64,000 nucleotides of DNA from an uncultured Algibacter sp. Lineage in GTDB: Bacteria; Bacteroidota; Bacteroidia; Flavobacteriales; Flavobacteriaceae. The translations under genes and the position numbers were made by a program. This document shows positions 10,455 through 44,324 of this stretch, in pieces (position 1 is the stretch's first letter; every line of letters begins with the position of its first letter). The notes below the pieces were generated by a model, which made no database searches, was not told the DNA's origin, and was given only the letters and a program-made list of their open reading frames with translations. The DNA lies in assembly GCF_963976535.1 (NCBI RefSeq), contig NZ_CAXBLF010000008.1:1922-65921 (forward strand), given 5' to 3'.

Positions 10455-10480
10455 AGATTCCCGCTTTCGCGAGAATGACA
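10455..10480. repeat. Single REP arm agattcccgctttcgcgagaatgaca
   Basis: AGATT...AATGACA architecture shared with the arms at 30000, 30430, 30560 and 44267. Confidence 0.7.
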
Positions 10481-17570: not shown

Positions 17571-17584
17571 CTTATCATTACTTG

Positions 17585-17658
17585 CTCCTTCTCTTGGGCT
17601 CGAACCAAGGACCCTCTGATTAACAGTCAGATGCTCTAACCAACTGAGCTAAGAAGGA
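17585..17658 (-). tRNA. tRNA-Asn(GTT)
   Basis: Reverse complement folds to a 74-nt cloverleaf: TCCTTCT/AGAAGGA acceptor, TCTGA-CTGTTAA-TCAGA anticodon arm, GGTTCGAG T-loop; no encoded CCA. Confidence 0.97.
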
Positions 17659-17661
17659 GTG

Positions 17662-17946
17662 TTACTTATATTTATTTTTAAGCTTTTTAGTACTTTCAGG
17701 ATACTTTTTCAGATTCTGAATATTCGTTTTGCTTTTCATTTTTTTAATATGGGTTTCTATTTTTCTTGCTTGAATTCTATCATTACATTCAATAGTGTAA
17801 TATATTTTCCAGTCTTTTACCTGTTTGGTAAAAGAAGCTTCATAAAAACCAGAATTATGTTATTCAATTCTGTCTTGTAAATCCACAGTTTCACCAACAT
17901 AATATCTGTCAAGTGAATTAGAATACAAAATGTAAACAAAATTCAT
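17662..17946 (-). pseudogene. GIY-YIG nuclease with one in-frame TAA (17860-17862)
   Basis: Hand translation: MNFVYILYSNSLDRYYVGETVDLQDRIE*HNSGFYEASFTKQVKDWKIYYTIECNDRIQARKIETHIKKMKSKTNIQNLKKYPESTKKLKNKYK; the stop lies 3 nt before the tRNA 5' end. Confidence 0.9.
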
Positions 17947-18128: not shown

Positions 18129-18201
18129 TGTCAATCTGAGCGCAGTCGAAGACATTGGAAATATCGTATTCAAAAGCATTTCGACTGCGCTCAATGTGAC
18201 A
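18129..18201. repeat. REP doublet (GAGCGCAGTCGA family)
   Basis: tgtcaatctgagcgcagtcgaagac ... catttcgactgcgctcaatgtgaca. Confidence 0.9.
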
Positions 18202-29901: not shown

Positions 29902-30592
29902 TGTTATTCAGAGCATAACGAAGAATCTACTTTACAAAAATTTATCAAATTGCAAGTATAAAACAATAAGTGTATATATTTTTTGATGATGAGACTTTAA
30001 GATTCATTAGTCGTACCTCCATCTGAATGACATTCGATTTATTTTCCTTTGAATGACAATGTCATTCAGAGCGGAGCGAAGAACCTCTTTTATAAAAAGT
30101 TTATTAAATTAACAGTATGAAAACAATTGGCAATCATAATTATTACGTTTACATGCTTACTAATAAAAGTAAAACGGTTTTATATACTGGTGTGACTAAT
30201 AATTTGAAAGATCGTCTTTATTTTCATAAAAATCCACTTCCATTTTCTAAAGCATTTACATCGAAATATAAATGTTATTATTTAGTTTATTATGAGCATT
30301 TTTTTCAAATTGAAAACGCAATTAAAAGAGAGAAACAGATAAAAGGTAAGAGTAGAGCAAAAAAAGACGCTTTAATTTTCGATTTTAATCCTTCGTGGTC
30401 CTTTTTAAATGAAAATATATAATTTTTCAAGATTCTTCAGTCGTTCCTCCTTCTGAATGACATTACGGTTTCTTTTCTTTGAATAGCAATGTCATTCAGA
30501 GGGTAGCGAAGAATCTTTTTTAATAATATTTTACTAAATTCACATTATTAGAGCTAATAAGATTCTTCAGTCGTACCTCCTTCTGAATGACA
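29902..30592. mobile_element. Array of three palindrome-pair (REPIN-like) units, the middle one carrying a GIY-YIG gene
   Basis: A arms at 29902, 30060 and 30490 (TGTCATTCAGAG..GCGAAGAATCT); B arms at 30000, 30430 and 30560 (AGATTCTTCAGTCG..CCTCCTTCTGAATGACA). Confidence 0.8.
30117..30422 (+). CDS. Stand-alone GIY-YIG nuclease (UPF0213/YhbQ-like)
   Basis: YYVYML...LYTGVT...DRLYFH...LVYYE...AIKREKQIK...NPSW. Confidence 0.93.
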   Translation: MKTIGNHNYYVYMLTNKSKTVLYTGVTNNLKDRLYFHKNPLPFSKAFTSKYKCYYLVYYEHFFQIENAIKREKQIKGKSRAKKDALIFDFNPSWSFLNENI

Positions 30593-30611
30593 AAAAGCTT
30601 CATATCAAAAT

Positions 30612-32375: not shown

Positions 32376-35300
32376 TCAAGCCACAATAGGTTGTAAAGTC
32401 TCTAATGCTTGTTTTACAGATTTAATATTCTCAAAAGTTAGCATTAATCTTAAACCGCTTCGAGTTTGTTTCTCTTTCATTTTACAAGTGCTAGGATTAG
32501 TTTGTACAAATTGCAACACTTTGGTAAAATTAGCACTTTGATAAAACCTACTTTGTTGATCGTTTATAAAATAACCAATCAACTTACCTTGTTTCATAAT
32601 AATTTTTTCAAACCCAATTTTAGTAGCTAACCACTTTATTTGGACACTATTTAATAAATCGGTCACTTGTTTTGGTAATTCTCCAAAACGGTCGATTAAA
32701 TCCATTTCAAAGATATGCAATTCTTCTTCTGTTTTTAAGTTATTAAGCTGCGTGTATAAATTAAGTCGTTCAGCAATATTATTCACATAATTATCTGGAA
32801 ATAAAAGCTCAAAGTCAGTATCAATAGTTACATCTTTAACGTAAACTTTGTTAGCTTCATCTTCATTATATAAATCTTTAAACTCATTTTCTTTTAACTC
32901 CTCGATAGCTTCATTCAATATTTTTTGATAGGTATCAAAACCTATTTCATTTATAAAACCACTTTGTTCTCCGCCCAATAAATCGCCAGCACCACGAATT
33001 TCTAAATCTTTCATCGCGATATTGAATCCGCTTCCCAATTCCGTGAATTGCTCTAAAGCTGTAATACGTTTTCTAGCATCATCAGTCATGGCCGAATACT
33101 CTGGTGTAATAAAATAACAGAATGCTTTTTTGTTACTCCGACCTACTCTACCGCGCATTTGATGCAAATCGCTTAATCCAAAATTATTGGCATTATTGAT
33201 GAAAATGGTATTAGCATTTGGTACATCAAGTCCGCTTTCTACAATTGTCGTACTTACCAATACATCAAAACCGCCATCCATAAACGAAAGCATAAGTTGC
33301 TCTAATTTTTTACCTTCCATTTGCCCATGACCGATACCTATTTTTGCATCGGGCACCAAACGTTGAATCATACCTGCAACTTCTTTAATATTTTCAATAC
33401 GATTATGTATAAAGAAAATTTGCCCACCACGTTGTATTTCGTAGCTGATGGCATCACGAATAGTTTCTTCGCTAAAACGAATTACGTGACTTTCAATCGG
33501 GTATCGATTTGGAGGTGGTGTTGTAATGACTGATAAATCTCGAGCAGCCATTAAGCTAAATTGTAACGTTCTCGGGATTGGTGTAGCGGTTAACGTTAGC
33601 ACATCCACATTATCTTTTAAAGTCTTAAGTTTTTCTTTTACGGCTACGCCAAATTTTTGTTCTTCATCAACAATCAACAAGCCTAAATCTTTAAACTTAA
33701 CATTTTTATTAACGAGTTGATGTGTGCCAATAAGGATGTCCACTTTCCCCTGTTCTAAACCTTCTAAAGTTTCTCGTTTCTCTTTTGCTGTCCTAAAACG
33801 GTTGACGTAATCTACCGTAACAGGAAAATCTTTTAAACGCTCTCTAAACGTTCTAGAATGTTGATATGCTAAAATGGTAGTTGGCACCAAAATAGCAACT
33901 TGCTTCCCATTATCTACCGCCTTAAACGCTGCACGAATTGCTACTTCGGTTTTACCAAAACCTACATCGCCACAAATCAAACGATCCATGGGGCGTTCAC
34001 TTTCCATGTCTGCTTTTATATCAGCTGTTGCCGTAGTTTGGTCTGGAGTGTCTTCGTAAATAAAAGAGGCTTCCAATTCGTGTTGCATATAACTATCAGG
34101 ATTATACTGATAGCCTTTTTCGGTTTTACGTTTCGCGTAAAGTTTTATTAAGTTGAAAGCCACATGTTTTACACGTGCCTTTGTTTTTTGTTTTAGGGTT
34201 TTCCAAGCATTACTTCCCAATTTGTAAATCTTGGGTGGTTTGCCATCTTTACCATTAAACTTGGTGATTTTATGTAGCGAATGAATACTTAAATACAGCA
34301 CATCGCGCTCGCCATAAACCAATTTAATGGCTTCTTGTTTTTTACCTTCTACATCTATTTTTTGAAGTCCGCCAAATCGCCCAATACCATGATCGATGTG
34401 TGTTACGTAATCGCCAATATCTAAATTTGTGAGTTCCTTTAATGTTATGGCTTGCTTTTTAGCATACCCGTTTTTAAGATGAAATTTATGATAACGCTCG
34501 AAAATTTGATGATCGGTGTAACACACTATTTTATTATCGTGGTCTGTAAAACCTTGATGTAGGGATAAAATAATGGTTTGATATTCTTTGACATCGAGAT
34601 GTGAATCATCAAAAATATCATGAAAACGTTTTGCCTGTTGTTCGCTTACGCATGCAATGTAGTTTGTATAACCGTTTTCGCTATTGGTATTTAGATCTTC
34701 GATTAATAGATTGAATTGTTTATTGAATGCTGGTTGCGGTGTGGTGTGGTGTTCAATAGTTTGAGATTCTTCGCTTCGCTCTGAATGACAAAAGACACTC
34801 TGTGTCCCAAACTCTATAACTGAAAAGTCGAGTAACTGCCTTTTTAATACTGTTGAATTACAAAATAGTTCGTTAGGTTCGGCATGTTTAATATCTGTTG
34901 AAAGTGTTTTAAAAGCGTCTTGTGCTTTATCATAAAAATCATCAATTCTAGAAAAAAGTAAATCGGCATTTTTTAAACACACTACTGTTTTTTGAGCAAT
35001 ATATTTCAGAAAACTTTGTCGGTTTTCTTGTAATAATTTATTCGCTACATTAGGAATAATGCTGATTTTTTTAATCTGCTCGATGGAAAGCTGTGTTTCT
35101 ACATCAAAGGTTCTGATACTGTCCACTTCATCACCAAAAAACTCGATTCGATAAGGCTCGTCATGTGAAAATGAAAACACATCTACTATGCCGCCTCGCA
35201 CTGAAAACTCTCCAGGTTCTGTAACAAAATCGACACGCTTGAATTGATATTCAAACAAAACTTCGTTTACAAAATCAATAGACACCTTATCATTGACACC

Positions 35301-44131: not shown

Positions 44132-44324
44132 TGTCTGGTCGAGCGCAGTCGAGACCTGATTAAAAACCTCTCGACTGCGCTCGAGGGGACAAAACATGCT
44201 AATTTCAAAGTCATTGCGAATGAGATTCGACTGTGGTAATCTCATGAATTGGGGTTCTCATTCAACAGATTCCCGTACTTCGACTGCGCTCAGTACAGGC
44301 AAACTCCGTTTCGGTCGGAATGAC
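44132..44324. repeat. REP cluster: GAGCGCAGTCGA doublet (44132-44191) plus a GTCATTGCG/AATGAC doublet (44210-44324) with a nested arm
   Basis: cttcgactgcgctcagtacaggc is inserted inside agattcccg...ggaatgac. Confidence 0.8.

Follow-up and report, generated by a model that had tools for sequence, protein, structure and literature searches.

A single-domain GIY-YIG protein of 101 amino acids (aa) and the tagged palindromes on either side of its gene, which lie between a permease gene and yraN in an uncultured Algibacter sp. (contig NZ_CAXBLF010000008.1), very probably belong to the Ssn/SRM system, the protein being a member of the Ssn family and the palindromes, here called A and B arms, the Ssn-related motifs (SRMs) that go with it. 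The DNA analysed, referred to as the window, is a stretch of 64,000 nucleotides (nt) in which position 1 is the first letter, and the cassette region runs from 29902 to 30592. The reading that best fits the locus is that of a once-mobile cassette, now a single-copy nuclease gene comparable to those of the RAYT proteins associated with REP (repetitive extragenic palindromic) sequences, whose product acts on dispersed hairpins in single-stranded DNA (ssDNA). The partnership of Ssn proteins and SRMs was itself already published in 2025 and is therefore not new here. What this locus adds is evidence of gain and loss, with one site that is empty, gene-less, decayed or full in close relatives; it further adds deletion derivatives beside a full copy, a dimorphism of A and B arms, an SRM variant missed by the published pattern and an in-frame hotspot in mfd.

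The Ssn family and the GIY-YIG protein

The Ssn family comprises single-domain GIY-YIG site-specific ssDNA nucleases, the genes of which are typically flanked by dispersed hairpin repeats known as NTS or SRM (Chenal et al. 2025, Nat Commun 16:2388, PMC11893778). SsnA of Neisseria meningitidis has 94 aa and a single GIY-YIG domain, CDD cd10448 (GIY-YIG_unchar_3); it binds NTS (CGTCATTCCCGCGMAVGCGGGAATCYRG) solely as ssDNA and cuts a few nt upstream, cleavage depending mainly on the three nt 5' of the palindrome and binding most on the C directly after it, and neither double-stranded DNA (dsDNA) nor RNA is a substrate (PMC11893778). Homologues of three other species each cleave their own repeat, and in Neisseria SsnA reduces the integration of NTS-bearing transforming DNA (PMC11893778). 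The authors of that study liken NTS-ssnA-NTS to insertion sequences (IS), IS200/IS605, RAYT, REP and bacterial interspersed mosaic elements (BIMEs), propose domestication, and leave open whether NTS-ssn-NTS cassettes were formerly mobile (PMC11893778). Besides this study, a literature search found no paper linking GIY-YIG to REP, REPIN or RAYT.

An intact GIY-YIG open reading frame (ORF) had been noted in the second of three A..B units in a preliminary description of the window, and it is borne out at 30117-30422 (+), where 101 aa are encoded and PF01541 (GIY-YIG) is matched over residues 8-82 at E 3.8e-15. Searches of Pfam and NCBIfam gave no further Pfam domain and no NCBIfam family in the protein, which at this length and without an accessory domain lies within the single-domain size range of ~90-150 aa, and a sequence search of PDB matched no GIY-YIG structure, the sole match being a spurious one to RalGAP (E 0.002). 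Close relatives of the protein number in the thousands; they are 70-90% identical, all of ~101 aa, occur in many genera of Flavobacteriaceae and are annotated merely as 'GIY-YIG nuclease family protein'. The dN/dS ratio against relatives is 0.05-0.13.

For comparison with N. meningitidis SsnA (CAX49033.1) the N. gonorrhoeae orthologue was used as a stand-in, having been found by tblastn of PLSDB in two chromosomes that are filed there as plasmids. At its locus (L161:1501-1770) there is a 94-codon frame with Y6, Y17 and E64 exactly at the positions mutated in the published work and with canonical NTS copies around it, and from these features we infer that the gene is orthologous to N. meningitidis SsnA. 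The window protein is 43% identical to this orthologue over 87 aa at E 2e-19, with 86% of the window protein covered, values that lie beyond the thresholds of E < 1e-10 and at least 75% coverage by which the published study defines SsnA homology. Residues Y12, Y23 and E72, the predicted catalytic equivalents, align with Y6, Y17 and E64 and are conserved in close homologues. Locus L161 corresponds to NZ_CP119142.1, 1880219-1883464, the PLSDB 'plasmid' being an N. gonorrhoeae chromosome of 2.17 Mb. An in-frame ATG is lacking in its ssnA orthologue, where the frame opened by the upstream ATG ends after 10 codons and the longest ORF is one of 71 aa from a TTG, and the gene may be frameshifted in that strain.

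Repeats flank the gene at homologous loci

In order to place the window among its relatives 80 homologous loci were collected (L001-L080), 70 of them with enough flank to be analysed, and these span Flavobacteriaceae, Chryseobacterium, Bacteroidales, Calditrichota, Chlorobiota, Clostridia, Deferribacter and Elusimicrobia. With a hairpin defined generically as a GTCAT tag, a stem of at least 4 bp that begins with the AT, and then a C, such a hairpin lies within 300 bp of the gene at 67/70 loci and on both sides of it at 57/70. These hairpins number 7.4 per kb close to the gene and 0.27 per kb at more than 1 kb away, a 27-fold difference, and the commonest orientation is '+' upstream and '-' downstream. 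Almost all of the loci share one layout, with TGTCAT...ATCT 5' on the gene strand and its reverse complement 3'. The tags are fixed and the stems vary (ATTC/GAAT, ATCC/GGAT, ATTGC/GCAAT, ATGC/GCAT, ATGTT/AACAT), a variation that is only suggestive of covariation because the detector demands pairing.

The preliminary description had proposed the GIY-YIG protein as the autonomous partner that spreads the repeats, and had asked whether homologous genes are flanked by them. As they are, judging from the flanks the GIY-YIG protein is the putative dedicated partner of TGTC-tagged palindromes, and that half of the proposal stands; that the enzyme spreads the repeats is unproven, both here and in PMC11893778. 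Homologues are also found in unrelated contexts or, in L012, on the other side of yraN.

Some genomes have two ssn homologues, in tandem or separate (L033 3001-3832; L066 2340-3267; L054 and L058, from the same metagenome-assembled genome (MAG)). The CBDUIO01 paralogues, 65% and 76% identical to the query, have different flanking stem types, the stems being ATTCC/GGAAT and ATTTC/GAAAT around L054 as against ATTC/GAAT around L058, and this contrast hints at co-variation of protein and repeat.

Architecture of the cassette

All six arms of the three A..B units reported in the preliminary description are present in the window, three in '+' and three in '-' orientation, and they have the shared termini that it had noted. 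A and B are a single motif in two orientations which, read on its own strand, starts 5' with TGTCATTCAGA and ends 3' with GAAGAATCT. The A arm is TGTCATTCAGAG-(6 nt)-GAAGAATCT, 27 nt in length, and the B arm is TGTCATTCAGAAGGAGGWACGACTGAAGAATCT, of 33 nt, with a 12-nt centre as compared with the 6 nt of A and a loop conserved as GGAGGWACGAC. At no more than one mismatch TGTCATTCAGA occurs nine times in the window, against a mean of 1.15 and a maximum of 4 in 100 shuffles. Ends of the ATTC..GAAT type and the 3' C are found in 6/6 arms and the GTC tag in 5/6, A1 having GTT instead; the features shown by mutagenesis to matter in SsnA recognition, GTC 5' of the palindrome and C after it, are therefore present with the exception of A1, and the arms share GTCATTC...GAATC with NTS.

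Arm A1 (29902-29928, +; SRM-type, TGTTATTCAGAGCATAACGAAGAATCT, tag GTT) begins directly after the permease stop codon (TAA-T) and opens unit 1, the gene-less interior of which (29929-29998, +) holds the ssn leader together with remnants of the gene from its start region and its 3' end, and which is closed by arm B1 (29999-30032, -), of the 33-nt SRM subtype. The B1-A2 linker of 27 nt (30033-30059) includes CTTTGAATGACA, a half-site forming a palindrome with the beginning of A2, and arm A2 itself (TGTCATTCAGAGCGGAGCGAAGAACCT; 30060-30086, +) lies directly 5' of the gene leader. Arm B2 (30429-30462, -) follows 6 nt past the stop codon of the ssn-like gene, and a second linker of 27 nt, B2-A3 (30463-30489), leads to arm A3 (30490-30516, +), which has the A-type motif. 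Unit 3 is likewise gene-less, its interior (30517-30558, +) keeping the leader to about the start codon with the remainder deleted, and it ends in arm B3 (30559-30592, -), with the B-type motif. Between B3 and the yraN start there is a tail of 19 nt (30593-30611), which is missing from the empty sites of relatives and is therefore part of the inserted segment.

The two linkers, similar as had been claimed, are 18/27 identical to each other. A block of 123 nt made up of B, linker, A and leader is found on both sides of the gene with 80% identity, and the leader of ~35 nt after the A arm is conserved in all three units. Unit 1 reaches the start codon region (agtat-aaaacaat, as compared with agtATGaaaacaat of unit 2) and also still shows a 3'-terminal remnant of the gene. 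Units 1 and 3 derive from the full cassette by internal deletion, in agreement with what had been suggested for unit 1 and, less clearly, for unit 3. The linkers were also considered as duplicated permease 3' ends, that is as a long target duplication, on the basis of a T-rich similarity of ~18/25; this was unconvincing and the idea was dropped because the 3' half of the linker fits the terminus of the B arm better.

The permease-yraN site in relatives

A comparison of 80 loci around yraN homologues (L081-L160) shows that the distance from the permease stop to the yraN start, which is 711 bp in the window, is 5-13 bp in 13 relatives, among them Algibacter luteus, A. marinivivus, A. aquimarinus and Algibacter sp. 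R77976, so that the empty sites which the preliminary description proposed to look for do exist. An identical empty junction, TAATT-ATG, is found in several genera. The insert begins directly after TAA-T and ends 19 nt past B3, and the permease-yraN segment of ~706-711 bp is an insertion relative to close relatives; it contains a complete SRM-ssn-SRM cassette along with two copies that lack the gene through internal deletion.

Intermediate states are found as well. The nearest relative by permease DNA, an Algibacter MAG (L085; 86.5%), has one gene-less A..B unit, an orthologue of unit 1 in which both the start region of the gene and its 3' end survive (compare L150), and of the next nearest two are empty (L083, L086) and one has the gene just past the permease stop (L001), as have L002 and L010. 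Decayed remnants of the gene or of arms are present in L102, L150 and L101, and in L155 a full cassette occupies the permease-yraN interval. Occupied and empty states are interleaved on a neighbour-joining (NJ) tree of the permease, which is star-like and poorly resolved and was used solely to show this interleaving. No target-site duplication was found at the junctions in the window or in L085. The cassette has behaved as a discrete unit that can be inserted or deleted, whether by repeated insertion or by repeated clean loss.

Within the population the picture is more uniform, as the identical protein is encoded in 22 contigs from several marine metagenomes, always in the permease-yraN context and with the same spacing. 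Several gene-bearing copies in different contexts were found neither among these 22 contigs nor in the window. Strong purifying selection acts on the gene, which has a single, fixed locus in the population, and a fixed, selected gene at a single locus looks like the RAYT pattern and not like that of an active IS.

Two further observations concern this interval. In Algibacter sp. 2305UL17-15 (L001, 3304-3390) 15 nt of the permease 3' end, TTGTTTAGGGGGTAA, are repeated exactly after the B arm, as if left by recombination or by a long target duplication, and in this genome yraN lies ~7 kb further on (L093). In L087, L111, L112 and L117 the gap between permease and yraN is occupied by another palindrome, (G)ACCTGWCAGGTTTTAAAAACCTGWCAGGT(C), which would be either another repeat family or a terminator at the same spot.

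Dispersed repeats and a hotspot in mfd

The exact motif is found in many phyla, in at least 120 stretches; the figures on dispersal describe the distribution of sites among the matches listed and not the copy number per genome. Among these matches a GIY-YIG homologue lies within 300 bp at 2/120 sites and none is adjacent at 118/120, and several of the dispersed sites form +/- doublets that resemble unit 3, their spacers being ~10-60 nt long.

In the window itself a copy of arm A within mfd (34764-34790, -) is 25/27 identical to A2, as had been noted, and it lies in frame (..FCHSERSEESQ..) in an interdomain linker. Three related arms had also been listed elsewhere, and two of these are real GTCAT-tagged hairpins, of stem types other than that of the arms. 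The first is an intergenic SRM at 10455-10480 (-), TGTCATTCTCGCGAAAGCGGGAATCT, which is almost a Neisseria NTS, folds at -5.6 kcal/mol (z -3.0) and misses the published SRM pattern solely at its last letter; the second is an intergenic SRM with a long loop at 44267-44324 (-), GTCATTCCGACC...GTACGGGAATC, the loop of which contains CTGAGCGCAGTCGAAG. The third, at 928, is a degenerate look-alike with GAC for GTC. Several SRM types thus coexist in this genome, and the window has a single intact ssn gene.

The linker of Mfd between ..IEFG and TTPQP.. (34731-34790, codons ~316-335) is an in-frame hotspot for tagged hairpins in L081-L160. At least four repeat types are found at this one position, including the A-type (CHSERSEES), GTCATGTCGAGCGCAGTCGAGACATC (VMSSAVETS), GTCATTGCGAG..TCGCAATC with an inverted partner (VIASETSQS...SQAPRND), and longer composites. 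The linker segment varies from 42 to 123 nt, its shortest alleles (42-48 nt) having no repeat. SRM repeats are thus able to sit in frame within a conserved gene and to turn over there.

No second close copy of the ssn protein was found within the window. There is a second small GIY-YIG-like frame (17662-17946, -), which adjoins a tRNA-Asn (17584-17658, -) and reads MNFVYILYSNSLDRYYVGETVDLQDRIE*HNSGF...; it is 33% identical to the ssn protein and, being broken by a TAA at codon 29, is a probable pseudogene. Just upstream of this frame a partial tRNA-like duplicate (~18020-17975) holds a hairpin, TCCGATAGCTATCGGGA, and an inverted doublet of GTCA..TGAGCGCAGTCGAA.. repeats is found at 18130-18200.

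Predicted activity and its limits

By analogy with the homologues of Neisseria and Wolbachia, the enzyme would bind an arm solely in ssDNA, would recognise the short ATTC/GAAT palindrome together with the C just 3' of it, and would hydrolyse the strand a few nt 5' of the GTC tag. With A arms lying on the top strand and B arms on the bottom one, cleavage is predicted just outside each A..B unit and on opposite strands, and in the B-linker-A doublets both of the predicted nicks would be inside the linker. Going by the mutational map obtained in Neisseria, A1 with its GTT tag would be bound but poorly cut. The ssDNA substrate would come from transforming DNA or from intermediates of replication or repair. 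GIY-YIG nucleases are hydrolytic and, unlike HUH enzymes, have no covalent strand-transfer intermediate, and for this reason movement of any kind would have to rely on replication or repair by the host. Concrete substrates with which the specificity of Ssn proteins, and possible mobilisation, can be addressed in Bacteroidota are provided by both types of arm, by the GTT variant A1 and by the doublets.

A number of observations weigh against assigning the locus to the Ssn/SRM system. The published SRM pattern, HGTCWYN(0-2)YYVSBRHN(0-5)WNVSBRGN(0-2)RNCYNB, was sought in both 500-bp flanks of ssn genes (PMC11893778), and it matches the NTS consensus itself but nothing in the window or at any of the 70 homologue loci; the membership of the arms rests for this reason on the shared tags and on position. 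Furthermore, single arms fold at 0 to -2.1 kcal/mol by DNA nearest-neighbour energies, with z ~0 against shuffles, as compared with -9.8 kcal/mol for the Neisseria NTS, so the statement of the preliminary description that each arm is itself a hairpin is poorly supported. The architecture also differs, in that the nearest downstream NTS at the Neisseria locus is direct and not inverted. Lastly, the activity of the window protein is a prediction from characterised homologues that are not from Bacteroidota, and a biological role has been described for Neisseria only (PMC11893778).

The pattern misses the AT-rich arms of Bacteroidota because it demands a GC-rich stem, and the published percentages of association probably underestimate this phylum. 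As for folding, pairs of A and B arms fold strongly, the doublets at -13.7 and -18.5 kcal/mol (z -3.6 and -5.9) and unit 3 at -21.3 kcal/mol, with z overall from -3.6 to -7.7.

A more far-reaching proposal, which we put forward only tentatively and think less likely than not to be right, is that SRM-ssn-SRM cassettes are present or recent mobile elements of a new mechanistic class. Hairpin-ended units would then be moved by a hydrolytic GIY-YIG ssDNA nuclease together with host replication or repair. If true, gene-less copies akin to miniature inverted-repeat transposable elements (MITEs), REPIN-like doublets and in-frame insertions in essential genes such as mfd would follow, and the permease-yraN and mfd-linker hotspots of Flavobacteriaceae would be the first natural record of such events.

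Alternative explanations

It would seem unlikely that the A..B unit transposes actively and autonomously, with MITE-like derivatives and with the GIY-YIG protein as its transposase, as a GIY-YIG counterpart of IS200/IS605. Much of the architecture would suit such an element, as inverted arms bracket the gene with gene-less deletion copies alongside, the nearest relatives have clean empty sites and a solo gene-less unit at the same position, homologues occur in many unrelated contexts, other genomes have scattered inverted doublets with short spacers, and at least four SRM types share one codon position in mfd. Against this, the identical protein is in one context in 22/22 contigs, the window has no second copy, and its junctions show no target-site duplication. 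The empty sites further lack ~19-23 nt past the B arm, and the boundaries of the element therefore do not match the predicted cut sites, which moreover would be on opposite strands, unlike the cuts of IS608 on one strand. To our knowledge GIY-YIG enzymes do not rejoin DNA, and a dN/dS of ~0.1 at a fixed locus has the look of domestication.

Less probable still is a homing-type selfish gene that enters the permease-yraN interval by homologous recombination of its flanks, for example after natural transformation. GIY-YIG is a classic fold of homing endonucleases, members of Algibacter, Oceanihabitans, Psychroserpens and Tamlana have this intergenic site occupied whilst congeners are empty, and the flanking genes, at 87-99% identity in protein, would provide ample homology. 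However, the characterised SsnA cuts SRM-bearing ssDNA and lowers integration, which is the opposite of homing, and the window protein has no DNA-binding domain with which an empty site could be targeted. The identity of the GIY-YIG gene also roughly tracks that of its neighbours (88% with 93-99%, 77% with 92%), as is compatible with vertical descent and loss, and the permease tree is poorly resolved.

Very improbable is a third explanation, in which the arms would be common mRNA hairpins with a terminator or cis-regulatory role and the GIY-YIG protein would be a housekeeping nuclease of DNA repair that is unrelated to them. In its favour are the places of arm A within the 5' leader, of arm B right behind the stop codon and of a T-rich linker after B. 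Against it, a terminator and promoter scan found no terminator-like site, on which account the terminator reading was dropped, and promoter-like sites only at chance level, no Rfam family was matched even at a permissive threshold (the matches resembling miRNA precursors, at 17-24 bits against gathering cut-offs of 72-139, are an artefact of long inverted repeats), the motif is also found away from such genes, inside mfd and in many phyla, and the characterised homologues do not bind RNA.

Comparison with known systems

The once-mobile, now single-locus Ssn cassette preferred here is closest to the Ssn/NTS system of Neisseria. Both have a GIY-YIG protein of ~100 aa with a single domain in which Tyr, Tyr and Glu are kept, and in both the flanking repeats, which are also dispersed in the genome, consist of a GTC tag, a palindrome that starts from AT, and then a C; the window site at 10455-10480 is nearly a canonical NTS. 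They differ in that the stems in the window, rich in AT and with an internal loop of purines, have hardly any predicted stability, that there are two subtypes here, A upstream and B downstream and inverted, and that gene-less deletion copies stand in tandem with the full cassette.

With RAYT and REPINs the locus shares a nuclease gene at a single locus, under purifying selection and with its own short palindromes on both flanks, repeats that are dispersed singly and as inverted doublets (here B-linker-A doublets flank the gene), and an enzyme that, if the homologues are a guide, would act on ssDNA hairpins. The enzymes themselves are unlike, the only associated protein here being a hydrolytic GIY-YIG nuclease in place of HUH/Y1, the tag is (T)GTC and not GTAG, and the predicted cuts are on opposite strands, strand transfer being unproven.

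The likeness to IS200/IS605 and their MITEs lies in hairpin-forming ends, an ssDNA substrate and the lack of target-site duplication, and further in internally deleted non-autonomous derivatives and in a presence/absence polymorphism with clean empty sites. The gene here is not multi-copy, however, and no known class of transposase is involved; one motif, in inverted copies, makes up both ends, whereas IS200/IS605 have distinct left and right ends on one strand.

Finally, free-standing GIY-YIG homing endonucleases such as I-TevI and the T4 Seg proteins have the same catalytic domain, and there too a small, selfish-looking gene is patchily present at one conserved intergenic site. The ssn protein differs from them in having no DNA-binding domain and no association with a phage or intron, and its relatives cut ssDNA beside the repeat and not the dsDNA of an empty allele.

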